From IMG/VR virus record IMGVR_UViG_3300025030_000080, positions 1 through 64,000 of that record: a stretch of DNA of 64,000 bases, one strand, 5' to 3'. Below, piece after piece: positions 2,768 through 28,129 of this stretch. Every line of letters begins with the position of its first letter. The stretch's first letter is position 1. A program made the position numbers and the translations under genes. This stretch comes from a virus. Under the pieces are notes generated by a model. That model worked only from the letters and a program-made list of their open reading frames with translations. It was not told where the DNA came from and searched no databases.

Positions 2768-2885
2768 TGGTGGTCGGGAGTGCCTTCACCCCAAGACATT
2801 TGCTTGGTCAGCACGTTTACCATCCGTGTCTCGCTATCGACGGGCGACAACAATCCCCGCTACTCAAGCAAGAACACTCCCAACC
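2768..2885 (-). ncRNA. putative 118-nt rod-shaped RNA with 3' ACCA end
   Basis: 5' GGUUGGGAGUGUU pairs with 3' GGCACUCCCGACC, followed by unpaired ACCA; inner stem UUGCUUG/CAAGCAA; GC-rich intergenic sequence in an AT-rich genome. Confidence 0.6.
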
Positions 2886-5398: not shown

Positions 5399-7372
5399 TT
5401 AAATTAAAGTTGATAAATATACGGAGCTTATAAGTCCAGCTTTTCCGCAATCATAATAATTATTTGAGAATTCTGATATAAGCTGAGCTACTCTCTTACC
5501 GTTATCATGATTTCCATTTATAAGAACAGAAGAAAGATAACCTAAGATTGCACGTCTAACACTTTCTGGCTCCTGTTCGATATTTTTAAGCATAATTGAT
5601 AATTCTTTCCAACGAGCCGGACCTGGCTCCTTAGCCATAATCTTACGACAAAGCTCTATGATGGTCGTTTCATCAGGAGTATTTTCATTAATAGCTTCAA
5701 GCTGTTTTTCTTCTTCTTTAATATCAATAATTTGGTCTAGAATAACTAGTGCTTTTCTAGCACATCCTTCTGCGGAAAATAAAATAGCATTTTTCACTTT
5801 TTCGGATAATTGAACCCCTTCGGATTCCAAAATCCAATTTACTAATGATATCATATCATGTTTACGAAGGGGGGATACGGTATATATGGTGGATCTAGTT
5901 TTTATTGTATTTAAAAGTTTTTCTGGCTCAGTTGTACAAAGAATAAAGTAAACCCCCTTTGGGGGTTCCTCTAAAATTTTTAGCATTGCATGTTGGAAAT
6001 CTTTGGTTGCTGTATGACAATTATGGGCCAGAATTCCATTTGCAAAATAAGATGGATGCCCGTCTATTTCTAAATCGTAGAATTCGACATACCCTTGATT
6101 TCTTTCTTTATTAGAAATAATACCTCGGAAAGATTCGTCATTATTTCCTGATTGGTAAATCTCAATACTTTCCACCCCAATTCTTTTAGTTTCTCCTCCT
6201 TCTTTTTGTCTCTCAATATAGGATCTCTCCCATTGTGCCCAGGCCCGTCCACTTCTATCGCTATTTTCAATTTGGTATTTCCTATATCCACTTTGTAGTT
6301 TGGAGGATATCCCAAATTGAGCTCCTTTTTTGAAGAATGTCCTGTAAGGATCACTACTTCTGTTTCCCATCCTAGAGATATTGATAACAAAGTTTGGGGT
6401 TCTGTTATTTTTCCATTCCCTCCCCTTTTCCCCTTCCAAATATGAAGGGTTCCGTTCAATCGTTTGGTAGACATAATTTTTTCCATTATTATTGGGTTTT
6501 GAGAAGGGTTGTTTTCTAACATTCTCAAGGAAGATTCTAATCTCATTCGATCCTTCGTTATTTGAGGAATTTTTTTCCATCCCTCTTTCATCTTTCGTAT
6601 TCTCTCTGGATCTGACTTCGCCTTTTTTATTTGGGGAAGAGACTCCCGGAATAGTGCCACACATCGACGAGAACAAAATCTCCTCGTCCTTTCGGAGAGG
6701 AATTTTATCAAAAAGGGAGCTTGGCACCATTCGCAAAGTTTCGTTTCTTCCATTTGGAAGACCCCCTTGTTTAAGGATGTTCCCCATTATACTACTATCG
6801 AGTCCGAAAGTAAAATATTTTTTAAGATTTTTGGCCGGAACCCACTCTCCAGAGGGGGTAAAAAATAAATGATCTTCGCTGCAAATAATATTACGGCCAT
6901 CATTAAAATTTATTTTTACCACTCTATTTATAGGAACTGTATTTTTGAAGGTATTTTTTACTTTACAAAATCCCCCCATACCTTGTACTTTGTCTCCTAT
7001 TTGAATATTTTCTATTGGTACTATTCCTTTATCGCTGCATATAGTGGTTCCTCTAGCGAAACATTCATCAAGAACTATAACTCTTACATCTCCATATAAA
7101 GGTTCAAACTGGCAACTTGCTATAATATCTCTAGCAGTATCAATCCCTCGCATATCAGAAATATTATGTTCGATATAATCCATATCGTTACAACCTAACA
7201 TTTTAGCGATTATTCTTGCAAGTGTGGTCTTTCCGTTTCCAGAGGGTCCTGAAAATAAAATCGTTTTTGGTTTATCCTCTCTTGCTAAAATTGACTTTAA
7301 ACTTTCTTTGATAGCTTCGTTACCAAAGAATTCCTCCAGTGAGGTGGGCCTGTACGATAGAGAAAGCGGCAA
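5399..7372 (-). CDS. dnaX: DnaX-like clamp loader AAA+ ATPase containing an intein
   Basis: YRPTSLEEFFGN, GPSGNGKTT, Walker B VIVLDE|CH split by the intein, LKILEEPP, TIKTRS. Confidence 0.9.
   Translation of the reverse strand: MPLSLSYRPTSLEEFFGNEAIKESLKSILAREDKPKTILFSGPSGNGKTTLARIIAKMLGCNDMDYIEHNISDMRGIDTARDIIASCQFEPLYGDVRVIVLDECFARGTTICSDKGIVPIENIQIGDKVQGMGGFCKVKNTFKNTVPINRVVKINFNDGRNIICSEDHLFFTPSGEWVPAKNLKKYFTFGLDSSIMGNILKQGGLPNGRNETLRMVPSSLFDKIPLRKDEEILFSSMCGTIPGVSSPNKKGEVRSRENTKDERGMEKNSSNNEGSNEIRIFLENVRKQPFSKPNNNGKNYVYQTIERNPSYLEGEKGREWKNNRTPNFVINISRMGNRSSDPYRTFFKKGAQFGISSKLQSGYRKYQIENSDRSGRAWAQWERSYIERQKEGGETKRIGVESIEIYQSGNNDESFRGIISNKERNQGYVEFYDLEIDGHPSYFANGILAHNCHTATKDFQHAMLKILEEPPKGVYFILCTTEPEKLLNTIKTRSTIYTVSPLRKHDMISLVNWILESEGVQLSEKVKNAILFSAEGCARKALVILDQIIDIKEEEKQLEAINENTPDETTIIELCRKIMAKEPGPARWKELSIMLKNIEQEPESVRRAILGYLSSVLINGNHDNGKRVAQLISEFSNNYYDCGKAGLISSVYLSTLI
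6070..6753 (-). CDS. DUF559/Vsr-like endonuclease nested out of frame inside the DnaX intein
   Basis: CEWC...FCSRRC zinc motif; YKVDIG...KIAIEVDGPGH...RDKKKEEKLKELGWKVLRFTN; AAGGGGG RBS upstream. Confidence 0.85.
   Translation of the reverse strand: MEETKLCEWCQAPFLIKFLSERTRRFCSRRCVALFRESLPQIKKAKSDPERIRKMKEGWKKIPQITKDRMRLESSLRMLENNPSQNPIIMEKIMSTKRLNGTLHIWKGKRGGNGKITEPQTLLSISLGWETEVVILTGHSSKKELNLGYPPNYKVDIGNTKLKIAIEVDGPGHNGRDPILRDKKKEEKLKELGWKVLRFTNQEIMTNLSEVLFLIKKEIKGMSNSTI
6786..6814 (-). promoter_or_regulatory. sigma70-like promoter inside the intein, upstream of the nested endonuclease
   Basis: TTTACT-17 nt-TATAAT, about 33 nt upstream of the ATG at 6753. Confidence 0.55.
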
Positions 7373-7389
7373 GGTATCTCCTCCTATCT

Positions 7390-7416
7390 ATTCTACAAGA
7401 AATTAGGGTAAATCAG
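7390..7416 (-). promoter_or_regulatory. phage promoter-like motif, copy 1 (upstream of dnaX)
   Basis: CTGATT-N15(ending TCTTG)-TAGAAT; same architecture at 24251, 28979 and 48404. Confidence 0.5.
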
Positions 7417-7419
7417 GTT

Positions 7420-10400
7420 TTACTCCTCTGAATAATCTTTTTTCGTATGCCATGGACCGTCTATCTCCGTTACACTTATCTCTGATATTAATGGAATACA
7501 TATCCATGGATTATTTTTCAATATGTCCTCAGTCATAACTCTTTTGGTAGTATTTGCTATATATTTTAATTCATCTGGATGAATATCTCCTAAAATTTCG
7601 TCGTGAATTTCTCCTATCCATTTAGATTTCCATTCTTCTTTTATACGAAGATCATTGAGTCTATTACAAGATTCCAATAGGCAGTGAAACGCTGTTCCCT
7701 GAATAACAGTATTTATGATCTCATTCTTCTTCAAGAATCCCCTTCTGCGGAATCCATGCATCATTTCTACATAACCATTTCTTTTGTATGAATTAATTAA
7801 TTCTTCTTGAAATTTCTTTACCCCTTTATACTTTTTCCAAAATTCTTGTTCTGCCTTTTGAACCCTCATCATAGGTAGATCATGGTATCCCCTACTAACT
7901 AAGTCAGCATGTATATTCTTGAAATATGATCCGTAAAATTCTGCAAATACAAAAGCATTTTTGGCATCAAATCTATGTGTTTTAGCGTCAAATCCAGATA
8001 GTTGTAAAAAATCTGACCACTCTTGGTGTATATCTGCTCCTTGTTCTCTCTCTTTCATTAAAACTTTATCTTTTGAATAGCATGCTATAATTCCTACTTC
8101 ATGACCTCCGTAATCCGCAGCCAATATGATATTTCCAGGAGAAGGAATCATTCCCCCTCTTACCATAATCATAGCTTCTTTATCTCTTTTGGGAATGTTC
8201 TGAAGATTAGGCGAATCAGAGTTATGAACGCATATTTCGTTAGCTATAAAATTTGAAAATTCCTCTACTTGGATATCATAAACTTCCGAAAATAAATTAA
8301 TATCTTCTATTTTGATTATAATATGATTTTTGGTAGTAAAAGAGCCAAATTGATTCCCCCATTTTCTTTGATAATATACCCCGTAAATTTTTGATAATCT
8401 TTGAGTTTTATAATAATTAAATCCTAATAATTCTATAGCTGCACTAGGTCCTTGTTTTAATATATTTATCAATTTATTTTTACTTATAAATTTCCCATTT
8501 CTATCCCACCTAGATTTTACCACAAATAAATCAATTTTTTCTAATTTAGAATGGTATTTAAAAGTACTAAAATCAAATTCTTTTCTACCCGTTACTACTC
8601 CTTTTCCTATGACCAGTAGTTTTAGTAATTGGTACCTACTTATTTTTTTATAATTATGATTTTCCTTTCCAATTTTATATGTTATTTTACCTTCTTTATG
8701 TAATTTTTTCATGGTAATAGTTCCACGCAAACGAAGGGTTTCCTTTGGTACTTTATTCATATGTAGTGCACAATGGGAATTTTTAGTGCGCTTTTCCAAG
8801 TTATTCGGAATATTGTTAAAATGATTTTCATCTTTATGATGAACAATATCTCCTAATTCTAACTTTTCTATTAATTGATCATATACTAGTACTTGATCTG
8901 CAATAGGAATATTTCCTGTAAAATAAACTCTATCGTCCCCTGTAGTTCTACCCATAGACAACACGCTAAATTTGGGAGATTTTTTAGATTGATTCGCTCC
9001 TCGTAAATCAAATTTTAATAAATTTTGGGCTTCTACATATTTTCCACTAACAGTTCTTACCAAATGCTCAGGGGTTAGATCTAAATACCCCCTTTTTTTC
9101 CATTTTTGACCCGATTGCCAATGAATTCTTATTACTTTTTTGACTCCAGTTTTCCCCGCCCAAAGAACTTTTCTTATGGCTGGTTTTAAATTATTATCAT
9201 AACAATAGACAAAATCTCCTTCTTTGATATCTTCTATAGGAATTCCTTTAGAAAATTTTGATACATCCCGAACTACTTCAATTATTGTTCCTTTAGCTAT
9301 GCAACTACTGCGGTAGGTCCTCACTAAATGTAAATTAAAATTAGAATGTAATTTTTTATCAACTTGTAATTCTAATATTCCGTCAATATATGTAGTTTTT
9401 AATTTATCTAATTGTCTCTTTTTAACCAAGTTTTTAGCAAAGGGAAGATCCAAACTTTCCAAAACATCCTTATCCACAGACTCATTATCTTTTTCAGTTC
9501 TTTTGACCGATTTAATTCCAAGGTAATCAAAAAATAATTTTTTCAAATCGTCTGGGGAACCTAAATTTATATCTCTCCCCATTTTTGATTTAAAGAGATT
9601 AGCCTCAGATGTACGAAGAAGTTGTTTTTCAAGAAAGGATAATCTCTTTTCCAATTTAACTTGAGTATCTTGGTAGTATTCCGTATTAACCGTAATTCCT
9701 GTCATTTCCATATCAGAGAAAGTTAAAATTCCTTTATGAAATAAATCGTAGGCTCTTGAAGCTGCTTCTGATTCTTTATTACCTTTATCTAAGAAATCCC
9801 ATTGCTTCTCAGCCAATCTCATAGTGAAATAGGCGTCCAGTCCGTTATATTTCAATAGTTCATTTAACGGACATTTTTGCATAGAATTAAATTTAGTTCC
9901 GGGGGCAGCTTTTTTATATTTTGATACTTCTCCTCCGTATTCATATCCCCAATTTATAAATGTTTGAAAGTCTAGCCCGGTAAATTGAGGACGTTCGTCA
10001 ACGATGTGGGAGAATACCATCGTATCCCAATACCATCCTTTTGGTTCTTCTCCGATTATTATTTTACTCCAAGGGTGCTCCATCTGAATATTTTGAGCTA
10101 CTTTTAAAATATCGGGGTCCGAAAGTACCCTGCGCCACGCCGTATTTACCCTATCTAACTGTCCTGATTCCCACGCTCCGGGGTAGTTACCGGGGAAGGA
10201 ATAGGCTAGATCCTCCCCGTAAATAGCGACAGCCGTAGACACAATAGAGTGTCCGGGGAAGTAGGGACGAATTCCCGTAGTTTCATAGTCAAAGGCTATC
10301 GTAGGTTTTTGATCTTTAATAGTTTTTAATAAATTTAAAACTTCATCTACGTTGGTCAAGCATTTTATTTTTTGGGAATAATCTATTTCTTCTATATCAG

Positions 10401-11031
10401 GAAGATTCGAGTTTATTTGTTCCATTGCCCATTTGAGATCTAGTTTAAAAATAGATTCTGCATCTGGATTTCTAATAACAAATGAAGGATGGTAAAGGGG
10501 AATAATCCAAGCCTTTATTTGAACGTCGGGAATACAAAGTTTTCTCCAACGTCCGATAGATAAATTGGTAGAAATTGGTTGAGTTCTATTCATGAAAAAC
10601 GCTTCTACTGCTTTTGCCCCAAAAAGTATGATGTATTTTGGTTGGTATTTCTGAATAGCGGAACGCCACATAAATTCACACGCTTTTAATTCCCTAGTGG
10701 TTGGAGTTCGATTGGTTCCCTTATCCGTAGCAGTACGACAAGCAACAGCATTAGTTTTCCAGAAATCTCTATCTAAATCGTACCCCATAGTCCGAAAACA
10801 TTTACGAAGAAAATGGCCAGTATCACCCACGAAAGCGTTATTTAACTTATCCTCTGTTTCACCAGGAGCCTCCCCTATTATTAAAGTTCTGAGTAACCCT
10901 TCCCCCGTGGGGGGAATCTTAGGGGATAAAACTTTTTTATGCAATCCGCACGCATCGCAGCCTATGGCACCTCGGATTGTTTTTGGTTGAACACTTTTAG
11001 ATTGTGTAGGTAGGTCGAAGAATCCGTTCAT
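7420..11031 (-). CDS. polA: family A DNA polymerase with N-terminal family-4 uracil-DNA glycosylase, 3'-5' exonuclease and intein
   Basis: UDG motifs CDAC, GEAPG, FVG, YHPS; exonuclease motifs FDYETTG, YNGLD; polymerase motifs PNLQNIP, AADY, FYGS, IQGTA, EIHDEI. Confidence 0.93.
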   Translation of the reverse strand: MNGFFDLPTQSKSVQPKTIRGAIGCDACGLHKKVLSPKIPPTGEGLLRTLIIGEAPGETEDKLNNAFVGDTGHFLRKCFRTMGYDLDRDFWKTNAVACRTATDKGTNRTPTTRELKACEFMWRSAIQKYQPKYIILFGAKAVEAFFMNRTQPISTNLSIGRWRKLCIPDVQIKAWIIPLYHPSFVIRNPDAESIFKLDLKWAMEQINSNLPDIEEIDYSQKIKCLTNVDEVLNLLKTIKDQKPTIAFDYETTGIRPYFPGHSIVSTAVAIYGEDLAYSFPGNYPGAWESGQLDRVNTAWRRVLSDPDILKVAQNIQMEHPWSKIIIGEEPKGWYWDTMVFSHIVDERPQFTGLDFQTFINWGYEYGGEVSKYKKAAPGTKFNSMQKCPLNELLKYNGLDAYFTMRLAEKQWDFLDKGNKESEAASRAYDLFHKGILTFSDMEMTGITVNTEYYQDTQVKLEKRLSFLEKQLLRTSEANLFKSKMGRDINLGSPDDLKKLFFDYLGIKSVKRTEKDNESVDKDVLESLDLPFAKNLVKKRQLDKLKTTYIDGILELQVDKKLHSNFNLHLVRTYRSSCIAKGTIIEVVRDVSKFSKGIPIEDIKEGDFVYCYDNNLKPAIRKVLWAGKTGVKKVIRIHWQSGQKWKKRGYLDLTPEHLVRTVSGKYVEAQNLLKFDLRGANQSKKSPKFSVLSMGRTTGDDRVYFTGNIPIADQVLVYDQLIEKLELGDIVHHKDENHFNNIPNNLEKRTKNSHCALHMNKVPKETLRLRGTITMKKLHKEGKITYKIGKENHNYKKISRYQLLKLLVIGKGVVTGRKEFDFSTFKYHSKLEKIDLFVVKSRWDRNGKFISKNKLINILKQGPSAAIELLGFNYYKTQRLSKIYGVYYQRKWGNQFGSFTTKNHIIIKIEDINLFSEVYDIQVEEFSNFIANEICVHNSDSPNLQNIPKRDKEAMIMVRGGMIPSPGNIILAADYGGHEVGIIACYSKDKVLMKEREQGADIHQEWSDFLQLSGFDAKTHRFDAKNAFVFAEFYGSYFKNIHADLVSRGYHDLPMMRVQKAEQEFWKKYKGVKKFQEELINSYKRNGYVEMMHGFRRRGFLKKNEIINTVIQGTAFHCLLESCNRLNDLRIKEEWKSKWIGEIHDEILGDIHPDELKYIANTTKRVMTEDILKNNPWICIPLISEISVTEIDGPWHTKKDYSEE
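8221..9303 (-). mobile_element. intein (361 aa) with in-frame HNH endonuclease in PolA
   Basis: CIAKGT...LTPEHLV...VHHKDENHFNNIPNNL...VYDIQVEEFSNFIANEICVHN|S; removal restores RSSSDSPNLQNIP. Confidence 0.92.
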
Positions 11032-12797: not shown

Positions 12798-13868
12798 TTA
12801 CTCTTGCTTGCTCATAGAAGCAACCATGATATGTTGAAACTTTTCAGAAGAAAATAAAAGGGACTTCTTAGTAGGAGATAAACGGAATTGACGAGTAATT
12901 CCAAGAATCTTTTTGAAAAAATCAGGTTGTACCTTAATTTGCATTCCTTCTTCGAAGAAATCCTTTTTCCATTCCACTCCATCAATAATCTCTCCAGCTT
13001 CCTTTCCTGCCCTAATTTCTAAATTCCCCTTTGAATAGGAAAGAAATACTCTGGACAAGGATTCCCAATTATCTCCTTCTCCACTAGCTAAAATTTTAGC
13101 TCTTTCCAACGGAGCTTCCATTCCTTTTGGAAACTCTAAAGGATCGGCTTTCATATCAAATTTCATAGATTCAAATAACCCCGTAATCTTCTTGAAGGGG
13201 TAATCCCCTGCTAAAATGCGAGAACTATATATAGGACCACCTTCATTTGAGAAATGAACCCAAGCTTTTGATAAAGCCATAATTTCAAATACTGGTTCTA
13301 ATTTTAAAAGTCCCTCCACTGTCTTGATAGGAAGAGTAAATGCGCTATTCACCGCTTCTAACATAGTATATACAGATACACGGTAGTTATCAGTAGAAAC
13401 AGCTTTATTTTCAAAGAAATGAACTCCTGCGAGAGGCCCTAAAGCTGGTCCTGTTCCAGCCCCGAAGGAGCACAATTCTAATCCCACTTGGAAATCTTTG
13501 GGGAGGTAAAACCATTCTAATCCGTCCGTTTGAACAGCCCAAGCCCTCTCAAGAGAACTAGTTATTTGTTCCTTTTGAAGAGGGTTCATTTTGAGAGTAG
13601 TTCTTCCCCCCTTAATTTGAAACTTTCCCTCTTCTGTCAATTTCATATCTATTTCTTCAGCGTCCATTTTGGATAAAACTTTGTATAATTCCTCTGCTCG
13701 TACTGCTGTTCGAATTTTTGTTTCTAATGGAAATGATACGCTGATATCTTCCTTGTACGAACGAACCCAATCTTCATCGAATAGGATAAAATCCGATCCA
13801 ATTGCACTAGACTTGTCAATTCCCATCATTACGGATTTAATGGCTAGTAATAATTCAGACTTTTTCAT
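12798..13868 (-). CDS. dnaN: beta-type sliding clamp (DnaN-like)
   Basis: 356 aa; GVHF...VSTDNYRVS and SRILAGDYP match DnaN motifs; close to PolA and DnaX. Confidence 0.75.
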   Translation of the reverse strand: MKKSELLLAIKSVMMGIDKSSAIGSDFILFDEDWVRSYKEDISVSFPLETKIRTAVRAEELYKVLSKMDAEEIDMKLTEEGKFQIKGGRTTLKMNPLQKEQITSSLERAWAVQTDGLEWFYLPKDFQVGLELCSFGAGTGPALGPLAGVHFFENKAVSTDNYRVSVYTMLEAVNSAFTLPIKTVEGLLKLEPVFEIMALSKAWVHFSNEGGPIYSSRILAGDYPFKKITGLFESMKFDMKADPLEFPKGMEAPLERAKILASGEGDNWESLSRVFLSYSKGNLEIRAGKEAGEIIDGVEWKKDFFEEGMQIKVQPDFFKKILGITRQFRLSPTKKSLLFSSEKFQHIMVASMSKQE

Positions 13869-14086
13869 TTTTTTGCCTCCATTGATTTAGATTCTTCATT
13901 TATAAGACGATTTAAATACCATTGGGCTTTCTTTAAATCCTCTAATTTTTTCCCTTTATGAGGAGCACGACATAAATATTTTACGACATTGCCTCCAAGA
14001 AAATCTAATTTTTGATCTAATATAAAATCAATAACTTCAATTTTCCCAGTAGTATAATGAGATGGATGATTAATTTGATCTTTCAT
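13865..14086 (-). CDS. DUF3310 family protein
   Basis: INHPSHYTTGKIEVIDFI...GNVVKYLCRA..K...EDLKKAQWYL. Confidence 0.9.
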   Translation of the reverse strand: MKDQINHPSHYTTGKIEVIDFILDQKLDFLGGNVVKYLCRAPHKGKKLEDLKKAQWYLNRLINEESKSMEAKK

Positions 14087-14838
14087 TCTCCTTCTCCTCC
14101 TACAAAAATATCGTCAAAAACAATAAGAAACGTTTTCTTAAATCTTTCTAGCATAGGAATAGTAATCTCTCTCATTTGAGGATGAGCTTTCGAAGAAGTT
14201 CTCAAACGAAAGAAATGCCGCCATTCACGAATATTAAAGGTGATTACAATTTCCGTTTTCAAACTATTAGGAAGCACCGATCGAGCTTCTTGGGGATTAG
14301 CATTATGTTGAAGCAACTCCATATAAGAATTTTCAGCAGTTTGGCACGCTGTATACCAATGATAAAAACGAGTTCCTGAATTTAATGGTAAATTTTCTGC
14401 ATGCATTTTTCCAATGGCAGCGTCCTTGGTATATCCTTTTAAAATAAGATCATTAAATGTTTCATAAGCTATTTGATACCAAATAGGCAGAATAACCGTT
14501 ATTTCTTTACTATTTCCATAGTTACAATATCGGGTAGATTCTTGACTATAGCTTGCTATTCTATGACGAACTATTTCATGAGATACACCACGATCACAAA
14601 TTACTCTAACTGTTATTTTTTCATGCTCAAGAACCGATTCGTGCCCGTTTTTTATAATCATTTGAACAAATTTAGCCGCAGAATCAATCGTTATTTTATC
14701 TTCTGATTTATAGCAAGTTCGTCCATACTTTTCTAATTTTGCGAGTAAATCATCTCCGTGATAATGATATTTTGTTTCATACCTTGGGCACTCTATTTCT
14801 TCATCTTCAAATTTCCACCAAGGAGAGATAATTTTCAT
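14083..14838 (-). CDS. thyX: FAD-dependent thymidylate synthase
   Basis: GHESVLEH, SHEIVRHRIASYSQESTRY, ARSVLPN, AHPQMR. Confidence 0.95.
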   Translation of the reverse strand: MKIISPWWKFEDEEIECPRYETKYHYHGDDLLAKLEKYGRTCYKSEDKITIDSAAKFVQMIIKNGHESVLEHEKITVRVICDRGVSHEIVRHRIASYSQESTRYCNYGNSKEITVILPIWYQIAYETFNDLILKGYTKDAAIGKMHAENLPLNSGTRFYHWYTACQTAENSYMELLQHNANPQEARSVLPNSLKTEIVITFNIREWRHFFRLRTSSKAHPQMREITIPMLERFKKTFLIVFDDIFVGGEGE

Positions 14839-14839
14839 T

Positions 14840-15652
14840 TCAATCTCCTATTTTAACATAAGAATAAATTTCTCTTTTTTCCACAGGACAAAGTTTATCT
14901 TTAAATATTCTCAAGCTTTCTATCCCCATAATTCCTCCATCATTAACTAATTTATTTTGATTCAAAATAACGGGGTCTGTATAAAATAAATATCTTTGGT
15001 ATTCATTCAAAAATTTAATATTTCTAGAAAATGAAAATCGGAAGTTAATATAAAAATAATTGGAATCCCAAATATTGATTCCAAGAATATATCCATTTTT
15101 ATCTACCAAAATTTTCCTATTATTTCCATTAAAAATATAATTAGTCATAACTTCATCATCATGAATTTCTTGATTTCCTTCTTTATTTTTTAACCATTCT
15201 ATGAATAAATCTTTTAGTTGATTTTCATGATTATCATTCGCTTCAATATACTGCAAAGGGGAATTCCCATACCGTCCAGGAAATTTACGGATATTCTTTC
15301 GGAAAACTTGAAATTTGTTTCCAGTTAGATCTAGGAAATGACGAGGGTTATAAATATGTTCTAATTCCAAAAATTCTTTTTTATAATTAGAAGGCATAGA
15401 CCAATTGGGAAAACTAGCCCATATATGAGTAGCCCAATTTTGGTAATCTCCGCTTATGCTATTTCCATTGGGGAGTAATTCCCCCGTATTCATATTTATT
15501 GGGGGGAATAAAATCCATTCGTTGTGTTTCCAATAAATAAAATCACCCGTAATTTCCTCTTTAATTTTAGCTCTTTGAAAATATTCTTCAGAGCAGGGAA
15601 AAGTAGGAATTATCTTATATTTTTTTAACAATTCCAAATATTGGTTTTTCAA
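14840..15652 (-). CDS. DUF2156 / MprF C-terminal-like GNAT-fold protein (aminoacyl transferase-like)
   Basis: HIYNPRHFLDLTGNKFQVFRKNIRKF and VNDGGIMGIESLRIFKDKLCP resemble the DUF2156 motifs YxY..L..LxGxK...KRN..N.F and IN...D.G..GLR..K..Y.P. Confidence 0.6.
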   Translation of the reverse strand: MKNQYLELLKKYKIIPTFPCSEEYFQRAKIKEEITGDFIYWKHNEWILFPPINMNTGELLPNGNSISGDYQNWATHIWASFPNWSMPSNYKKEFLELEHIYNPRHFLDLTGNKFQVFRKNIRKFPGRYGNSPLQYIEANDNHENQLKDLFIEWLKNKEGNQEIHDDEVMTNYIFNGNNRKILVDKNGYILGINIWDSNYFYINFRFSFSRNIKFLNEYQRYLFYTDPVILNQNKLVNDGGIMGIESLRIFKDKLCPVEKREIYSYVKIGD

Positions 15653-16745: not shown

Positions 16746-17225
16746 TTATAAAAGTGAATTTACTTTAGCATCTATAAATTTAATAGCTTGTTCTACAGTA
16801 AAAATTTCTTCGGCCTCATTAATAAAAATATCTATTTGAAATTCTACTTCTGCTTTTGTTATTAAACCAATAATATCTAAAGAATCTAATTTTAAATCTT
16901 CGATAAAATGATCTTTTCTATCTATTTTATCTAATGGCATACCAGATTGATCGGATATAATTTTAAAAAGACGATCTTCAACAGAAATAGGTTCTATTTT
17001 CTTTCTTTTTTTCAAAATAGGATGGAGGTTTTCCTTAACTTTTTTATTTATGGGTAATAGTCCATCTCCTTTACATTTACTACAAACTTTTGAATTTCCC
17101 CCATATATAAGGGACATCCAAGTTTTTTCTTTATTAGGCATTTTTCCAGAACCCTTACAAACTTTACAAAAGTCATATTCCGCTACTGGCATATAAATTT
17201 GGAAATGTTCCATAGTCATAGTCAT
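16746..17225 (-). CDS. acyl carrier protein fused to an N-terminal CxxCxGxG zinc finger
   Basis: CKVCKGSG and CSKCKGDG, then FIEDLKLDSLDIIGLITKAEVEFQIDI..EAEEIFTV (ACP with DSL serine). Confidence 0.8.
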   Translation of the reverse strand: MTMTMEHFQIYMPVAEYDFCKVCKGSGKMPNKEKTWMSLIYGGNSKVCSKCKGDGLLPINKKVKENLHPILKKRKKIEPISVEDRLFKIISDQSGMPLDKIDRKDHFIEDLKLDSLDIIGLITKAEVEFQIDIFINEAEEIFTVEQAIKFIDAKVNSLL

Positions 17226-17233
17226 TTATATTG

Positions 17234-17622
17234 TTATTTCCCTCTTCTTTCTACTGCATCTCGAATATTGCCTACTGCTTGTTTTTGCCCTTCTGTCGCA
17301 TGTTTTCTTTCTTCAACAGTTTCTGCTATGCCCAATAGAGTATCCTCTGCCCATTCGAAATCATCATCAGATATGCAATCATTTATTTCTTTTAACAAAT
17401 CCTCCCATTCACATTCTTTACACATTACTTGTCTCCCTCGGCCTCTCTCTTTTTCCTTTCTTCATCTCCAGGGAAATCCTTCGTCCAATCTAACCCCCCT
17501 TTATTCATAAGTCCTGAGGAAGAGCCAGATTTAGAGGATTTTCCTCCTTTTGATGATTGGCTCTGTAACCGTTCGACTAATTTGCGACTTATAGAACCAG
17601 TTTTTCTACTCTTGCCCCCCAT
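17234..17622 (-). other. two small hypothetical genes (17234-17425, 17425-17622)
   Basis: Translationally coupled small ORFs. Confidence 0.5.
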
Positions 17623-18574
17623 TTGATACCCCCTTTTTAAATTTTCTTCTCTCCCGGCCCTCTTTTACTTTAGCCCTAGATTTTGGATCAGACCAAAGTT
17701 GTTTCATAGTTTTAGATAATTTTGATTTTGATTCTTCACTATTTTGTTTTCCAGTATTAGACTCTATGTTTTTTCTTCTATATTCTGGATTATTCCATTT
17801 TTCTTTTATAGATTGAGATAAGGACTTTAACATATTTGATCTCATTTCTGGATCAGCCCATTGATTTGTAGCAGATTCTGATGCTTTTCTACTAAATTCA
17901 GGATCAGATGCTATAGTATTTGCTCTATTTAAAACTCTTTTTGATCGAATATCAGGGTCTTCCCATTCTTTTTTCCTCAGAATAGATCCAATTTGACGAG
18001 ATTCTGGTGATCTCATAATTTCTAATATTTTGTCCTTAAATTTAGGGTTTTCCCACCTATCTTTAGTACTTTTAGACATTATAGCTTTTACTTCTGGGTT
18101 ATCAAGTCCCTTTTTAATAGCATCTTTCATTCTATTTTTATATTCTGGATCTTCCCATAAATTTTTAACTGATTCAGATATTTGAGATATAATTTCAGGA
18201 TTATCTTTGTATCTATTTTTAGTTAATTCAGATAGCTTTACTTTAGATTCCTCCGACCATTTTATCCCCCTATTGGATTCTGCTATTTCCCGAATATTAT
18301 ACCCATTTTCTTGTTTATATGATTCATAGTAATCTAACCAAATTTGTTCTCTAGGAACTAATTGAGTTAAATCATAAACTAATTCTATTACCATAAATAC
18401 AAAAGATTCTTCCCCATATTTACAATAGGCAGATTGAATGTGTTGAGTATGTTCTCCTCTACGAAGTAACCATAAATGCCCCCTTTCCCATCTAATATAT
18501 ACATCTTCAGAAGATCCTATATACTTCTTCCCATTTATTCTATTAAGTATCATGTATACACCGGAAATTTTCAT
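17606..18574 (-). CDS. GIY-YIG homing endonuclease with NUMOD3-like repeats
   Basis: MKISGVYMILNRINGKKYIGSS..RW...REQ.WLD..GYN and repeated W.NPE units; start moved to MKISG (ATGA overlap with the upstream gene). Confidence 0.88.
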   Translation of the reverse strand: MKISGVYMILNRINGKKYIGSSEDVYIRWERGHLWLLRRGEHTQHIQSAYCKYGEESFVFMVIELVYDLTQLVPREQIWLDYYESYKQENGYNIREIAESNRGIKWSEESKVKLSELTKNRYKDNPEIISQISESVKNLWEDPEYKNRMKDAIKKGLDNPEVKAIMSKSTKDRWENPKFKDKILEIMRSPESRQIGSILRKKEWEDPDIRSKRVLNRANTIASDPEFSRKASESATNQWADPEMRSNMLKSLSQSIKEKWNNPEYRRKNIESNTGKQNSEESKSKLSKTMKQLWSDPKSRAKVKEGRERRKFKKGVSNGGQE

Positions 18575-19344
18575 TTTATTCTTCTCTTTAAAATAGGGGG
18601 GATTATTTTTTCTTTCTGTAAATCCAAAATCCCCCCGCAGTCGTCGAAAATACACCCCGCCACAACTGCTTGCATATTATTATGCAGTCCATCTATCATA
18701 AAATATTTACATCCTTCTGGAAAATAGATATTAATTTTATCATTGAAATTAAATAATGCTAAGAAATCTCCTGTTCTTATTCCAAGAGGAGAAATAGAAT
18801 CTGGAAGAACATCTTCTGGTTCTGTTAAGCCGAGGCCCTCCATTTCTATTTTTCTTTCGAGCAGTATCAGAGATCCGGCGTAGATATCTCGTTGAAGTAT
18901 TTTTATTTCTCCCCCTCTAGTTACAAATTCAATATGCGATAAATTCTCGTCCAAAAGGTCTAACGAGGATTTATGAAAAGGGATCTTCCACTTCATTTTT
19001 TCTGTATCATAAAATTTATAAAATAACTCTTCTACTTCTTGAAAAGTTTGAGTAGGTATTCTACATTTTTTCTTACGGAGAAATTCTTCTCCTTTTTGAA
19101 GGAAAGTTATGCTATTTCCGTCTGCAGTAAAATTTGGGGAATCATAATCGCTTAGAAAAAAACGAATTGGTTCTGGAAATTCATTCTTAGTTGCCTCGAA
19201 CCGAAGTATCATGGTTTTATCGCTGTTGAGAATATAAATAACATTTTCCCAACAGAATGCAGAGTTTTTTTGATTCCCTGATTGTTCCAAAGCAACTCCA
19301 TATGAAAATATTCTTTCTACTTCTAATTCTCTCAAAATTGTCAC
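18571..19344 (-). CDS. hypothetical protein (beta-rich, possibly clamp-like)
   Basis: 257-aa ORF; no firm motif. Confidence 0.55.
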   Translation of the reverse strand: MTILRELEVERIFSYGVALEQSGNQKNSAFCWENVIYILNSDKTMILRFEATKNEFPEPIRFFLSDYDSPNFTADGNSITFLQKGEEFLRKKKCRIPTQTFQEVEELFYKFYDTEKMKWKIPFHKSSLDLLDENLSHIEFVTRGGEIKILQRDIYAGSLILLERKIEMEGLGLTEPEDVLPDSISPLGIRTGDFLALFNFNDKINIYFPEGCKYFMIDGLHNNMQAVVAGCIFDDCGGILDLQKEKIIPPILKRRIK

Positions 19345-21211: not shown

Positions 21212-21916
21212 TTACAATGCTTCAAAATTTAAGTTTCTTTTATTTCTAGCTTTTGCTTTTCCTTCAACGGATTTGGCAATATGTTCCGGACTAAGATGTC
21301 TTCCAATAAGGGAAGCAGATAAATTGGCTAAATATTTTGGGTTATTGCTTCTCCTTATAAACCCTTCCGCCATTTTAGCTCTAAATTTTGGATCTGCCCA
21401 TTGTTTTTTAGCAACAACTGACTGATTTTTTCTAAAATTAGGATCTTTTCCCCTTTCTTGATTCATTTCTAATATTTTTATTTTATGTTCAGGACTTTTC
21501 TTTCTGCCTTTCAAAAGAGAAATTACTTTATTTCTATATTCTGGATCTAACCAATGATCTTTACTAGTTTGAGAAATTATTTTCTTAACTTCTTCTGAAT
21601 GTTTATTTCCTAAACAAGAATTAGCATATCTACAAACATTATACCCATATCTATCGTCATATGATTGGTAGTAATCTAACCAAGTTTGCTCTCTGAAAGA
21701 TAATTGAGACAAATCTTTTACTATTTCCATTATTATAAATTCAAAATTTTCTTCTCTATATTTATGATAAGCCCTTTGAAAATAAAGAGAATGGTGAGTT
21801 CCTTTACGAAGTTCGCATAAATGATTAGTCCACCTACTATATAAATTTACAGCAGATCCGACATATCTTTTTTCATTAATTTTATTAACTATCATATAAA
21901 TACCTGATACTTTCAT
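21212..21916 (-). CDS. GIY-YIG homing endonuclease (NUMOD3)
   Basis: SGIYMIVNKINEKRYVGSAVNLYSRW..H, REQ.WLD, GYN, GNKHSEE. Confidence 0.9.
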   Translation of the reverse strand: MKVSGIYMIVNKINEKRYVGSAVNLYSRWTNHLCELRKGTHHSLYFQRAYHKYREENFEFIIMEIVKDLSQLSFREQTWLDYYQSYDDRYGYNVCRYANSCLGNKHSEEVKKIISQTSKDHWLDPEYRNKVISLLKGRKKSPEHKIKILEMNQERGKDPNFRKNQSVVAKKQWADPKFRAKMAEGFIRRSNNPKYLANLSASLIGRHLSPEHIAKSVEGKAKARNKRNLNFEAL

Positions 21917-22564
21917 TCACCGTACCAAATTTTCCAACATTTCTAGACGGAAATCGGAACTTTCAATATATCTCCAAATTATGTTTTCCTCTCGATCTCT
22001 TCCATATGGTTCCATTCCTTGGGCCCAATCCGGAAAATAAGCCGGATTGCTCATTCTTAAATTCCACGAGTTCTTAACTTCTTTCATCAAAGTTTCTGAT
22101 AACCACCCTCCACGTTCCTCTACGAAAGTGTTATATTCTCCCCACGTTACGGGTCGGGGGGCGTTGTTTCGAACAAACCTAGCTGCAATCATATTGTTTC
22201 CGTAGGAGAATCCTCCACCTAAAGGAAGATAGATGTCAGATATAGAACAGCAAATATCGTCGTCATTGATAGGAGAGTTGCCAAAATCAAAAGTGGATGA
22301 AGAGAATCCCTGATTTTTCATTAATTTCATAAATTCCCCTAAGACTAGGGAACCTAGCCACTGACTATCTGACATTATAAGAAACATTCGATGGAAATCT
22401 ATCCCTAACATTTCCATTTGGCGCTTTACTCCGGGGGCGGAAGCGGAATAACTATATGTATCGAAAGTAATGTGCTTGATTCCAATTTCCTTTACTCTAC
22501 TGATCCATTCTTCCACTGCATCTTTTTCATCGTTTACGAAAATCATTAAGGGTTCGATCCTAGC

Positions 22565-22586
22565 CACCACCCTAACACCACCCTAA
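22565..22586. repeat. 11-bp tandem duplication (CACCACCCTAA x2)
   Basis: Directly visible; lies exactly at the frame break. Confidence 0.9.
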
Positions 22587-23058
22587 CCCCTGCATCTACA
22601 AGAGCTTTTGCAGCAAGTAAGCGTTGGGAGAAGGAAGGTGCCCCAGGCTCTAACTTTTTATTTAAAGCATCATCAGAAGATATCATAGTCATATGGACAG
22701 CAGAACCGGCCTTATTATCTGCCAAAGCTCTAACGTAGTCTTCTCTACCGATTAACGCTGATTTTGTGTTCACCATAATAGGATAAACTTGATCTGATAA
22801 ATAACGCATGAAATTCAAACTAATTCCTTTTTGCGCTTCGATAGGAAGAAAATCTTCAAATCGAATTCCTAGACGGATGGGAATTTGAAGACTTATTGCT
22901 TTTGGTAATTCTGGTCCATCAATCTTTTGGCCTCGAAATTTCATTAATTTATCCATCTCCGTTCGGAAGTATTCCGGTCGGCAATGGCGTATTCCAATTT
23001 CTTTGGGATTATCAAAAAATGATGTATATAATGATGATCGGAATGAATCTGCAAAACA

Positions 23059-23481
23059 ATTGTGAACTAAAATCCCCTCCGCGAAATAATTATTATTGGG
23101 CACGCATTCAAAATTATAAACTATTTTTTTATTGCTAGTTTTTGCTCTATATATAGATTCAATTCTTCTCCATGCCCATTTATTAGAATTATTGGGGGGA
23201 TAAAAAACAATCATATCATGAATACTTAATTGTCCAGCATCTATCCATCCTCTACTAGTAAATACAGGATGTTCTAAAGTAAGTTTTAAAATTTTTTCTT
23301 TTATTTTGATAACTATCAAATCTTCTGCGGTTCGACTCATTATTTTTGTAACTACTGACTTTTCTGATTCTAAGTGAGTTCTGTAAGTTTTTAATGAAAC
23401 TACCAAATCTCCTTCTTTGATATCCTTAATATTCTTTTTCTTTCCGCCCCACATTTGTATTTTAGTTAATGGCGGCAGACA
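23059..23481 (-). mobile_element. mini-intein (141 aa) in the radical SAM CxxxCxxC motif
   Basis: CLPPLT...LTLEHPVFT...VYNFECVPNNNYFAEGILVHN|C; no endonuclease domain. Confidence 0.9.
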
Positions 23482-23775
23482 ATATTTGCACTGGTAACTG
23501 CAAGATAGGGCATCGTAAGTATCTGAATTTAAAGGAAGTGGACAATGAGCGGCTCTTAATGAAACTTCAATAAATGAAGTAATTTCCTCTTTATTTAGCA
23601 TTCGCTGTTTAACTTCAAATTTTTCGCTATCGAATGAAAATTCGGAATAATTTACTTTACGGCCTTTCTCACGAACTAATCCTTTATGCTTCTCCATTGA
23701 TTCGAGTTGAGATCTACGAGGGATAATGGTTTTGACTATTTCGCGCAACTCCCAGTAATCTTTAAATATAGTCAT

Positions 23776-24603: not shown

Positions 24604-25539
24604 TCATCTCCCTAACCTATCTTTAAAATATTTTATAGTTTGTTCTAATCCGTCAGATAATGTAACTTTTGGTTCCCATTTTAATTTATCTTTAGCCATA
24701 GTTATATCAGGTCTACGTCGAATGGGGTCATCTCCAGGCAATGGTTTATAAATTATCTCTGATTTTGATTTTGTTAATTTTATTATTACTTGAGCCAACG
24801 TTTTTATATCTATTTCTATTGGATTACCTATATTTATAGGACCAGTAATATCATTGGTATTCATCATTTTTATAATACCTTCTATTGTATCATCTATAAA
24901 ACAAAAAGAACGAGTTTGCCTTCCATCCCCATATATTGTGATAGGATCATTTTTTAAAGCTTGTAAAATAAAGTTAGATACCACTCTTCCATCTCCAGTG
25001 GCTAAATTAGGTCCATAAGTATTGAAAATTCTTACCACTTTGATAAAAAGTTTATGTTGTCTATAATAATCAAAGAATAAAGTTTCTGCACATCTTTTTC
25101 CTTCATCATAGCAAGATCGAATCCCTATAGGATTTACATTTCCCCAATAATCTTCATATTGAGGATGCCTCAAAGGATCTCCGTAAACTTCCGATGTAGA
25201 TGCTTGAAGTATTTTAGCTTTTGTTCGTTTTGCTAATCCTAGCATATTTATTGCCCCATGAACTATTGTTTTAATAGTTTGAACAGGATCTTTTTGATAA
25301 TAAATAGGAGAAGCAGGGGCAGCAAGATTATAAATTTCATCTACTTCAACATATAATGGAAAAGTTATATCGTGCCTTAATAATTCAAAATTAGGATTTG
25401 ATAAAAGAGGAAGAATATTTTCTTTGGTGGATGAATAAAAATTATCTACACAAAGAACTTCATTTCCTTCATTTAATAATCTTTTACATAAATGAGAACC
25501 AAGAAATCCTGCTCCTCCAGTTACTAATATTTTTTTCAA
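24604..25539 (-). CDS. UDP-glucuronate decarboxylase (UDP-xylose synthase)-like SDR
   Basis: [69 protein letters not shown]. Confidence 0.92.
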
Positions 25540-26723: not shown

Positions 26724-27121
26724 GATGTCATCTTTTCTTTCAACTCAGGTAGATCCTTTCTTTCTTTTAGACTAAAATTTCCCAAAACTTTTTGTAGACA
26801 CCGTTTTTGATCTTCTGCTTCATCTACTGTCATTTCTGCGTTATAAATAGGAATAATTTTATCGCCCTTTAAATTAAATCCCACATTGTAAATCCAAATT
26901 TTATTGATATTGGGTGTTATATGAGAAGTTGGTTTTACTAGTGCCCCAGTCCCAACAAAACCATTAAGATATGTAATAACGTGGGCTATTTTTACACGAG
27001 AATAAAAATACTCTAATTCAATAAATAATGTATCTCTCTGTTTTTTAGTAATATTTTTATTCTTACAACTTTCGTTCCATATATTATAGGTGTCTAGACT
27101 AAATGGAAGTTTTCTATCCAT
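26720..27121 (-). CDS. hypothetical protein
   Basis: 133-aa ORF in the operon. Confidence 0.5.
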   Translation of the reverse strand: MDRKLPFSLDTYNIWNESCKNKNITKKQRDTLFIELEYFYSRVKIAHVITYLNGFVGTGALVKPTSHITPNINKIWIYNVGFNLKGDKIIPIYNAEMTVDEAEDQKRCLQKVLGNFSLKERKDLPELKEKMTS

Positions 27122-27156
27122 TTATTGATTCTCCTTAATCCTAGTATTTTCTTTCA

Positions 27157-28027: not shown

Positions 28028-28129
28028 TGGTGGTGGTGAGGGGATTACCACTTATTTCGGTCTTATCACCGAACACTGTTAAGTACCCCCGTCAAGGTTC
28101 CTCCGGGACATTCGTCCAAGAGCACCACC
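28028..28129 (-). ncRNA. putative 102-nt tRNA-like RNA (7-bp acceptor stem plus ACCA, non-cloverleaf)
   Basis: GGUGGUG/CACCACC then ACCA; arms GGAC-GAAU-GUCC and a long GGGG..ACUUA..UUCGGU/ACCGAA..UAAGU..CCCC hairpin; TATAAT 5 nt upstream. Confidence 0.6.

Follow-up and report, generated by a model that had tools for sequence, protein, structure and literature searches.

The window analyzed here is the whole stretch of 64,000 nucleotides, positions 1 to 64,000 of the virus record IMGVR_UViG_3300025030_000080, which belongs to a phage from groundwater and soil metagenomes. The gene under study encodes a putative transferase and lies in a block of DNA-replication genes. The protein-coding features to which we refer below are as follows:

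14840..15652, minus strand: DUF2156-like tandem-GNAT transferase gene, an intact open reading frame of 270 aa with a TTG start
14083..14838, minus strand: ThyX (PF02511, E 3e-47), immediately downstream of the transferase gene
12798..13868, minus strand: beta-clamp-like DNA polymerase processivity factor (phrog_947, E 1.7e-24; weak match to DNA_pol3_beta_2)
7420..11031, minus strand: UDG-fused family A DNA polymerase with an intein (Pfam DNA_pol_A, UDG, exonuclease and Intein_splicing)
16746..17225, minus strand: fusion of a Zn-ribbon and an acyl carrier protein (PP-binding, E 4.5e-6; phrog_5934)
18571..19344, minus strand: PCNA-fold two-domain clamp-like protein 'X' of 257 aa, the conserved upstream partner
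21917..23775, minus strand: SPL/COG1533-type (Rv2578c/PA0069-like) radical SAM enzyme with an intein (Pfam Radical_SAM and Hint/intein)

When the transferase was compared with Pfam, PF09924 (LPG_synthase_C, formerly DUF2156) was the sole family found at E<=1, and FemAB (PF02388) was not matched. The match covered residues 98-162 with an E value of 9.7e-6 and 25.3 bits (20.9 bits in the genome-wide scan). Because this score falls below the gathering cut-off of PF09924, which is 27.5 bits, the sequence places the phage protein as a distant relative outside the curated boundary of that family. Among 44 aligned members of the transferase family, 21 matched PF09924 at E<0.01. Two conserved blocks were evident, ...G..W.VFRKN.RKF at about residues 96-127 and VNDGG...FK.KL.P at residues 236-256. 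Both were aligned by hhalign (probability 55%, E 1.2e-4) with DUF2156 proteins of the 2hqy type, in which the counterparts read DY.Y..L.G.K..KRNH.N.F and INREED.G.EGLRKAKLSY.P, respectively. In this alignment, R118-K119-N120 of the transferase was paired with K-R-N 151-153, and K251 and P256 were paired with the invariant K288 and P293; the N-terminal GNAT half gave no sequence alignment to the 2hqy-type proteins. Twenty residues are invariant in the 44-member alignment, including R118, K119, N120, F250 and K251. The maximal Kyte-Doolittle mean over 19 residues was 0.5, indicating that the protein has no membrane domain. The two DUF2156-like motif blocks and the lack of a membrane domain, both noted in the first-pass annotation, were thereby confirmed, and no longer homologues with fused aminoacyl-tRNA synthetase or membrane parts were found, which is weak evidence in the same direction.

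The transferase family comprises 378 sequence clusters at E<=1e-3 (about 300-380). Relatives are mostly about 250-300 aa long, with a range of 164-321 aa among the 150 matches listed. The family is restricted to phages and has no cultured representative: among 185,579 species genomes, only four MAG contigs carried it, and neither the transferase nor the neighboring clamp found a match by tblastn in 50,697 GenBank phage records. PHROGs and NCBIfam hold no family for it. Literature searches on DUF2156 in phages, on aminoacyl-tRNA together with hypermodification or radical SAM enzymes, and on SPL together with phages or clamps returned nothing on this family.

The fold was assessed with an AF2 model of high predicted quality (pLDDT 93.5, pTM 0.90). 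Foldseek matched the model to 2hqy with an E value of 5.6e-10 and a TM score of 0.70, and VIA-align likewise ranked 2hqy first (Z 23.0 over 257 residues, 3.0 A, 19% identity). The same entry was the sole match when the PDB sequences were searched with the transferase family profile (E 0.024). The synthase domains of MprF (4v36, 4v35 and 7duw) followed with Z scores of about 15-16.6, spanning residues 1-270, and the aminoacyl-tRNA-dependent enzymes Sbb17/Sba18 and FemX gave Z scores of 11.7-13.9 at a sequence identity of about 11%. Tandem GNATs that depend on CoA reached Z scores of 12.6 or below, and human ATE1 reached 10.4. The model thus points to a soluble tandem GNAT of the DUF2156/MprF-C/Fem type, in agreement with the GNAT/DUF2156 fold that had been proposed from the letters alone, and the protein is almost certainly an enzyme of the DUF2156 (MprF synthase domain/Fem-like) superfamily. 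Because the function of 2hqy is unknown, its match names no substrate for the transferase.

Features that reviews associate with aminoacyl-tRNA transferases were nevertheless recognizable. A positively charged helix is described as an acceptor-stem-binding feature common to these enzymes (PMC6103681). In the AF2 model of the transferase, a basic helix, H112-128, is situated between the GNAT halves; the median net charge of residues 108-130 is +6 in the 44 members, whereas the whole protein has a net charge of -4. Judged by its sequence, this helix is a candidate for binding of the tRNA acceptor stem. Charge was also considered as a hint of DNA binding, and this was rejected, since the family, with a median pI of 5.7, is acidic as a whole and shows no general DNA-binding charge. 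An invariant VNDGG loop precedes the last helix, which holds the invariant pair F250-K251 near the C terminus. In FemX, Lys305 is a key active-site residue, and the equivalent in DhpH-C is Phe328-Lys329 (PMC6103681, PMC12945691); aaPGS has an Arg in the active site where FemX has the Lys (PMC6103681). K251 is likened here to Lys305 of FemX, which is inferred from the profile alignment to 2hqy-type proteins and from analogy. The premise that the fold is one that uses aminoacyl-tRNA gains support: the basic helix is retained, as is a Lys towards the C terminus that probably lies where the reviews place the mark of such enzymes. Donor and acceptor are unreadable from the sequence, and both are inferred; for Mom, the co-substrate and substrate have likewise been described as unpredictable from the structure (PMC13219725).

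Comparison of 80 related viral loci revealed a conserved gene order: SPL-type radical SAM enzyme, PCNA-fold protein, transferase, beta-clamp and PolA. A clamp loader is also part of this strictly conserved string, which lies in the replication operon, and successive genes of the string overlap by 4 nt. The beta-clamp, the conserved downstream neighbor of the transferase, was present in 69 of the 80 loci and the UDG-fused family A DNA polymerase in 72. In the reverse test, loci were chosen by alignment of the radical SAM gene, and both the PCNA-fold gene and the transferase were present in all 67 informative loci. The annotated conserved neighbors were replication genes and the radical SAM and PCNA-like genes, plus a PALP-type PLP enzyme in 35 of the 80 loci. 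Some relatives carry DNA methylase and TET-associated glycosyltransferase genes as insertions at the same place. The general annotation, which covered 10 kb on either side in the 80 loci and selected open reading frames of the window, showed no thymidine-hypermodification genes. The transferase thus belongs to the core of the replication operon in a large clade of uncultured phages. Common ancestry, and not a joint pathway, may explain the co-occurrence of radical SAM enzyme, PCNA-like protein and transferase, because the three are found alongside the entire replication module within a single clade.

The PCNA-fold open reading frame matched a profile built from 72 related loci with an E value of 2e-88. 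Its AF2 model (pLDDT 88) was most similar, according to Foldseek, to yeast and archaeal PCNA (E 2e-9), and Pfam and NCBIfam gave no match. The protein carries unusual invariant Lys, Cys, His and Glu residues. By-eye inspection of the transferase termini for a PIP-box or other clamp-binding motif yielded nothing convincing. None of the three proteins (radical SAM enzyme, PCNA-like protein, transferase) has a PHROG function or a representative in a cultured phage. The conserved partners, i.e. the radical SAM enzyme and the PCNA-fold protein, are not those singled out in the first-pass annotation.

Other neighbors of the transferase proved to be particular to this phage. The transferase gene ends at 14840 and thyX begins at 14838, so that the placement directly upstream of thyX, to which attention had been drawn before, is true here. 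It is not conserved, however: thyX was found within 10 kb of the transferase in only one of the 80 related loci, and there at another position, so the adjacency occurs only in this genome. A DUF3310 neighbor was likewise not conserved in the 80 loci, and tblastn found the acyl carrier protein fusion in none of them. ThyX, the acyl carrier protein fusion and two structured RNAs ending in ACCA are peculiarities of this genome and stand outside the conserved system. The two RNAs are:

28028..28129, minus strand: ACCA RNA 1, structured, with a 7-bp terminal stem followed by ACCA; fold z-score -3.3
2768..2885, minus strand: ACCA RNA 2, a structured rod ending in ACCA; fold z-score -3.8

It had been proposed earlier that these RNAs are partners of the transferase, which would use both non-cloverleaf molecules as dedicated aminoacyl carriers. 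The idea has some appeal. Both RNAs fold better than their shuffles and present a terminal stem of 7 bp or longer followed by ACCA, and AlaPGS accepts a 7-bp microhelix (PMC6103681). RNA 2 is moreover conserved in the nearest relatives: its 3' half is 87% identical in genomes G001-G003, and its stem is maintained there through wobble changes. Against this stands the distribution of the RNAs. The covariance model of RNA 1 matched only its own genome among 31 records, and the nearest relative, which is 97% complete, is without this RNA; that of RNA 2 matched three of 31, namely this genome and the nearest relatives G001 and G002. Only one or two distinct sequences went into these models, which limits their reach. 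Neither matched in seven genomes of ≥90% completeness that carry the transferase, and neither RNA was detected with significance by blastn or nhmmer within 10 kb of the transferase in the 80 loci. A scan for a 7-bp stem plus ACCA returned 19 intergenic matches versus 7-18 for control tetramers, so that the two are not distinguishable, and Rfam contained no family at E<=1 for either RNA. Aminoacylation of the two RNAs is purely conjectural. The observation named beforehand as refuting the proposal, no co-occurrence with the RNAs, was thereby made, whereas the radical SAM gene was accompanied by the transferase in all 67 informative loci. Use of the RNAs by the transferase is thus highly improbable, and as a general mechanism the carrier idea is close to refuted. 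This removes a tempting but unsupported link and leaves the RNAs as a separate unexplained item.

The best reading of the data, to which we give about an even chance, is that the enzyme is an aminoacyl-tRNA-dependent transferase that uses ordinary tRNAs and acts on a replication-linked target, possibly DNA. Its donor is probably aminoacyl-tRNA. The aminoacyl group would be taken from an ordinary aminoacyl-tRNA of host or phage, the acceptor stem of which would be held by the basic helix; Lys251 would activate the ester, a role ascribed to Lys305 in FemX, and the group would be passed to a soluble acceptor linked to replication. The earlier annotation had offered DNA, a nucleotide, a sugar or the acyl carrier protein as acceptors. 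A replication-linked acceptor other than a lipid is plausible, since the transferase gene lies within the replication operon. Newly made phage DNA is our best guess for the acceptor, albeit a tentative and somewhat doubtful one. Cooperation of the transferase with the radical SAM and PCNA-like proteins is about as likely as not. In such a partnership, it would carry out one step of a hypermodification alongside a DNA-type radical SAM enzyme, and the PCNA-like ring would serve as a tether. Taken to its full extent, the scheme becomes a clade-wide, clamp-coupled DNA hypermodification machine in which radical SAM enzyme and transferase ride on the PCNA-like ring behind the replisome and use ordinary charged tRNA; it would install an amino-acid-derived base modification on nascent phage DNA. 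We consider this extended scheme rather unlikely.

Three further explanations compete with the use of an ordinary charged tRNA for a soluble, possibly DNA, acceptor. The enzyme might be a tandem-GNAT N-acyltransferase that employs acyl-CoA or acyl-ACP, without any tRNA, and has a small molecule, protein or DNA as its target. Mycothiol synthase, VipF and glucosamine N-acetyltransferase indeed match the model with Z scores of 11-12.6, and an acyl carrier protein fusion is encoded 1.1 kb upstream in this genome. In the GNAT topology, the loop before the last helix is the binding place of the CoA pyrophosphate, and it is there that the invariant VNDGG loop of the transferase is located. Yet the Z scores of the tRNA-dependent relatives are much higher (23 and 15-17 versus 12.6 or below), all Pfam or hhalign signals lead to DUF2156, the family retains both the basic helix and the Lys, and the acyl carrier protein is absent from all 80 related loci, so that CoA dependence appears unlikely. 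Envelope remodeling during infection, by MprF- or Fem-like action on a lipid or peptidoglycan precursor, is scarcely credible. It would fit the fact that the characterized enzymes nearest in fold aminoacylate phosphatidylglycerol or UDP-MurNAc-pentapeptide, but the transferase has no membrane or flippase domain, is translationally coupled in a replication operon between two clamp genes in the 80 loci, and has no envelope genes among its annotated neighbors.

A protein rather than DNA might be the target. The enzyme would then resemble L/F-transferase or Ate1 in passing an aminoacyl group from aminoacyl-tRNA to a protein of the replisome or of the host, such as the neighboring clamp-like protein or an N-degron substrate. 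The two clamp-fold genes that flank the transferase and the unusual invariant Lys, Cys, His and Glu of the PCNA-like protein are consistent with this. Human ATE1 is among the fold matches (Z 10.4), and a review counts Arg- and Leu/Phe-transferases among the GNAT-fold aminoacyl-tRNA transferases (PMC6103681). The match to ATE1 is, however, far weaker than those to DUF2156 or MprF, Pfam detected no sequence signal of the L/F-transferase or Ate1 families, and the strict link with the SPL-type radical SAM enzyme would be left unexplained. We therefore regard a protein target of this kind as quite unlikely.

Among known proteins, the closest in architecture to our candidate aminoacyl-tRNA transferase is 2hqy, a stand-alone DUF2156 protein of Bacteroides thetaiotaomicron with relatives named 'phosphatidylglycerol lysyltransferase domain-containing protein'. 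It is likewise a soluble single-architecture tandem GNAT of about 300 aa, and proteins of its type share with the phage transferase the G..K..KRN helix motif and the C-terminal ..K....P motif. They are cellular, however, and their scores against PF09924 lie well beyond the cut-off (181 bits for one of them in a MAG genome), as opposed to 25 bits or less for the phage family. The synthase domain of MprF/aaPGS (PF09924) has the tandem-GNAT fold and a basic helix of the kind described as tRNA-binding in common with the phage transferase, and perhaps also a basic residue at the proposed active-site position; MprF additionally possesses an N-terminal integral-membrane flippase domain, which is lacking in the phage protein of the replication operon. 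At the proposed active-site position, aaPGS has Arg, whereas the phage family and FemX have Lys (PMC6103681). FemX/FemABX and Sbb17/Sba18, DhpH-C, PacB and VlmA are soluble tandem GNATs that transfer from aminoacyl-tRNA to a soluble acceptor, and F328-K329 of DhpH-C resembles F250-K251 in that Phe precedes Lys (PMC12945691). The Fem and natural-product transferases reside in cell-wall or antibiotic gene clusters and the phage transferase in a replisome operon. A functional precedent is Mom of phage Mu, a phage-encoded GNAT that moves glycine from Gly-tRNA to adenine in double-stranded DNA and thus uses a charged tRNA for DNA hypermodification (PMC13219725). The Mom protomer has a GNAT fold into which an HTH-like element is inserted; Mom dimerizes tightly and works on its own (PMC13219725). 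By description, the phage transferase differs in being a tandem GNAT of the DUF2156 kind, and it invariably occurs together with a radical SAM enzyme and a PCNA-fold protein.

Enzymes that employ charged tRNA for purposes other than translation fall into only a few known kinds, and Mu Mom, the first found to write on DNA, is a recent addition. Here, a different aminoacyl-tRNA-transferase fold is encoded by a core replication-operon gene in a large clade of uncultured phages that spans hundreds of sequence clusters. Should the trio modify DNA, this would be a new route of phage DNA hypermodification, with a bearing on restriction evasion and metagenome sequencing artefacts and possibly new enzymatic tools. 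The clamp-coupled machine, if true, would rank as the second system to modify DNA with the help of tRNA; it would be unrelated to Mom in structure and the first of its kind tied to radical chemistry and a sliding clamp. If the target is instead a protein or a metabolite, the enzyme would still represent an unrecognized use of charged tRNA during phage replication.

The radical SAM enzyme matched rSAM_Rv2578c and rSAM_PA0069 in NCBIfam. For the C-terminal part of the protein, the ESM Atlas gave leads below 0.9 only, DUF1848 and SPL, and a tblastn search with the fusion in the 50,697 GenBank phage records returned merely two weak partial matches. In this record the gene is split into two open reading frames by an 11-nt tandem duplication near 22566, which is visible in the sequence. 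The duplication is missing from contigs of four runs from four studies, and in the relatives the gene is single and encodes about 470 aa.

The gene under study encodes a DUF2156-like tandem-GNAT protein, hereafter the transferase:

14840-15652, minus strand, transferase ORF, 270 aa, TTG start

There is a 4-nt overlap between its start and the stop of the ORF upstream, and a single base separates its end from thyX, the next gene downstream. PF09924 (LPG_synthase_C, formerly DUF2156) was the sole Pfam match (E 9.7e-6, residues 98-162), with a score of 25.3 bits that falls short of the 27.5-bit cut-off; no family was found in PHROGs or NCBIfam. In a 44-member alignment of the transferase family (A1), which contains 20 invariant columns, 21 of the 44 members matched PF09924 at E<0.01. 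A word-indexed search returned 195 homologues of 35-68% identity, all metagenomic. An exhaustive profile search gave 378 clusters (50% identity) at E<=1e-3 and 263 at E<=1e-30, and the protein length was 164-321 aa in all 150 clusters among the matches listed. Within 185,579 prokaryotic species genomes, the gene occurred on only four contigs, all MAG and from four different phyla, for which mis-binned phage DNA is a fitting account. GenBank phage records yielded neither the gene nor its neighbouring clamp. The family is phage-restricted; within a known superfamily, the transferase forms a new branch specific to phages.

An AlphaFold2 model was built on A1 (pLDDT 93.5, pTM 0.90). Its top Foldseek match was the stand-alone DUF2156 protein 2hqy (E 5.6e-10, TM 0.70), followed by MprF synthase domains, FemX, and the aminoacyl-tRNA-dependent peptide synthases Sbb17 and Sba18. 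VIA-align likewise placed 2hqy highest (Z 23.0, 257 residues, 3.0 A), with MprF/aaPGS synthase domains at Z 14.9-16.6 and Sbb17, Sba18, and FemX at Z 11.7-13.9. The DUF2156/GNAT-type fold suggested by the first-pass annotation is thus borne out for the predicted structure. In a profile-profile comparison of the family with 2hqy-type proteins (A5, a 36-member alignment that matches 2hqy itself at E 6e-82), columns 89-258 were matched at E 1.2e-4 with a probability of 55%, and the two DUF2156-like motif blocks noticed earlier were aligned. The reported absence of a membrane domain was also confirmed, as neither a hydrophobic segment in the transferase nor a longer fused homologue was found. Fold, conserved motifs, and solubility of the transferase are accordingly established at this computational level.

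Characterised MprF- and Fem-family enzymes use aminoacyl-tRNA as substrate (PMC6103681). Aminoacyl-tRNA transferases share a positively charged helix holding the tRNA acceptor stem and a basic residue activating the aminoacyl ester, i.e. Lys305 in FemX, Phe328-Lys329 in DhpH-C, and an Arg in aaPGS (PMC6103681, PMC12945691). In the transferase family, helix H112-128, with the sequence GNKFQVFRKNIRKFPGR here, is the only region that Pfam recognises. The median net charge of residues 108-130 is +6 and that of the whole proteins -4 (median pI 5.7). R118, K119, and N120 are invariant, as are F250-K251 in the last helix, and K251 was aligned with an invariant Lys of the 2hqy-type proteins. This likeness to aminoacyl-tRNA transferases is a computed resemblance, and it points to aminoacyl-tRNA as the probable donor. 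Acyl-CoA is the main alternative, given that the same overall fold occurs in CoA-dependent tandem GNATs; these were aligned with the model at Z 12.6 or below.

An IMG/VR scan with the transferase provided 80 loci (83 confirmed relatives, 29-63% identity). Neighbours within 10 kb of the transferase gene were counted by tblastn of the window proteins against these loci.

Conservation of neighbouring genes among the 80 loci
UDG-fused PolA: 72
DnaX-like clamp loader: 69
Beta-clamp-like processivity factor: 69
Radical SAM protein and its C-terminal part: 69-72
gp32: 60
DnaB: 51
UvsY: 41
RecA: 36
thyX: 1
ACP fusion: 0

The placement directly upstream of thyX, to which the first-pass annotation had drawn attention, holds in the window with its 1-base gap but not among relatives, where thyX lay within 10 kb in a single locus of 80. 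The order was near-invariant: primase and DnaB, then, further along, radical SAM, X (a PCNA-fold protein), transferase, clamp, PolA, DnaX, UvsY, gp32, RecA, and FEN, with 4-nt overlaps between consecutive genes in typical loci. In a reverse test, 80 loci were picked via the radical SAM protein. Downstream sequence of 2.5 kb or more was available for 67 of them, and all 67 carried both X and the transferase gene. The transferase is a core gene of the replication operon and strictly co-occurs with an SPL-type radical SAM enzyme and the PCNA-fold protein. No description of this placement or of these fixed partners was found in the searched literature or phage databases.

X is a two-domain clamp-like protein of ~260 aa found in 72 of the 80 loci:

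18571-19344, minus strand, window copy of X, profile E 2e-88

Its AF2 model (pLDDT 88) adopts a PCNA fold, with yeast and archaeal PCNA as best Foldseek matches (E 2e-9). PCNA-fold rings encircle DNA and tether enzymes. X is the second clamp-like gene in the window besides the beta-clamp-like gene. It carries invariant polar residues unusual for a clamp (K92, H137, E139, Q151, and C231, and almost without exception C94 and D234) as well as a basic tail that is disordered, and its 3' end lies inside a GIY-YIG homing endonuclease ORF (17606-18655).

The radical SAM protein (~470 aa, 61% mean column identity) contains a CxxxCxxC motif and further invariant Cys. It matched NCBIfam Rv2578c and PA0069 and, weakly, Pfam SPL and DUF1848; it belongs to the SPL/COG1533 group. 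SPL, the characterised member, repairs a thymine lesion in DNA. In IMGVR_UViG_3300025030_000080 the gene is divided into two ORFs (22546-23775 and 21917-22570), at whose junction (window 22546-22590) an 11-nt tandem duplication, TTAGGGTGGTG, causes a frameshift. Without the duplication, the frame runs on as the family consensus AGVRVVARIEP... Four sequencing runs on groundwater or soil, drawn from four studies and perhaps including the record's own source sample, gave contigs that all lacked the 11 letters and carried C>T at 22565. In the natural population the gene is therefore intact, and the split is a variant or error of this record.

The two ACCA RNAs, raised earlier as possible carriers, are structured elements, each with a terminal stem and ACCA directly after it:

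28028-28129, minus strand, RNA1
2768-2885, minus strand, RNA2
L085 1501-1607, minus strand, RNA2 counterpart in a related locus

Neither belonged to an Rfam family even at E<=1. RNA1 has the form GGUGGUG...CACCACC-ACCA with TATAAT just upstream. In the three nearest relatives, RNA2 shares 87% identity over its 3' half and has another element in place of the first hairpin, and wobble changes (U-G/U-A and G-C/G-U) preserve the terminal stem; no terminator-like T run follows RNA2. Covariance models were searched in 31 transferase-carrying records, eight of them at least 90% complete. The RNA2 model matched only its own genome and two nearest-relative records (G001, G002). The RNA1 model matched only its own genome. 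None of the 30 related records held a match, not even the nearest relative at 97% completeness, and RNA1 looks to be either newly acquired or quick to evolve. In the 80 loci, neither sequence searches nor a generic structural scan rose above background. Aminoacyl carriage by these RNAs had been tied to their co-occurrence with the transferase, which failed to appear (RNA1 in 1/31 records, RNA2 in 3/31), with the proviso that the models rest on one or two distinct sequences and very divergent analogues could escape them. Clearly, the transferase gene is found, and conserved, in genomes where neither RNA has a recognisable copy.

Instead, we propose that the amino acid would come from ordinary charged tRNA. 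With the PCNA-like ring as its tether, the transferase might act alongside the radical SAM enzyme to modify newly replicated DNA, and a PLP enzyme might tailor the product further in ~40% of relatives. Mom, a phage GNAT, aminoacylates DNA adenine from Gly-tRNA, and its authors stress that substrates of such GNATs are not readable from structure (PMC13219725). DNA is a possible but rather doubtful acceptor for the transferase, with protein and the cell envelope as rivals. The chances are about even that the transferase, the radical SAM enzyme, and the PCNA-like protein form a three-protein module; their co-occurrence within one clade could be simple shared descent. A clamp-coupled, tRNA- and radical-SAM-dependent DNA hypermodification machine is unlikely on the present evidence.

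A gene for a PALP-type PLP-dependent enzyme (~270 aa, weakly threonine-dehydratase-like) closely precedes the radical SAM gene in 35 of the 80 loci (e.g. L045 6473-7291, L015 6947-7744, L028 5193-6026) and is absent from the window. In some relatives, N6/N4 DNA methylase genes or a gene with a TET-associated glycosyltransferase domain are inserted after the transferase/clamp genes and before PolA (L028 11733-12443, L017 12057-12980, L069 11365-11799), a spot that seems to collect DNA-modification genes; an aldo-keto reductase also occurs at the transferase region in some. A tRNA-Gly directly follows the clamp gene, ~1 kb downstream of the transferase, at L051 11794-11869 and L080 1477-1552. 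Any tRNA within 10 kb was seen in only 4/80 loci, i.e. there is no general pattern.

An accessory cluster in the window (24604-28005, minus strand) comprises an SDR sugar-nucleotide dehydratase-like gene (24604-25539), a second radical SAM paralogue (25536-26723), and an Npun_F2552-family gene (27157-28005). The SDR gene lay within 10 kb of the transferase in 3/80 loci and the Npun_F2552 gene in 6/80; the paralogue cross-matches the conserved radical SAM gene, which makes its own count inseparable. Selfish elements are dense in the replication module (window 5399-11031, 17606-18655, and 21212-23775): PolA, the DnaX-like protein, and the radical SAM gene contain inteins, and the ORFs 21212-21916 and 17606-18655 encode GIY-YIG homing endonucleases. 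The elements separate the genes for the radical SAM protein, X, and the transferase; in typical relatives these three genes sit next to each other or within a few tens of nt.
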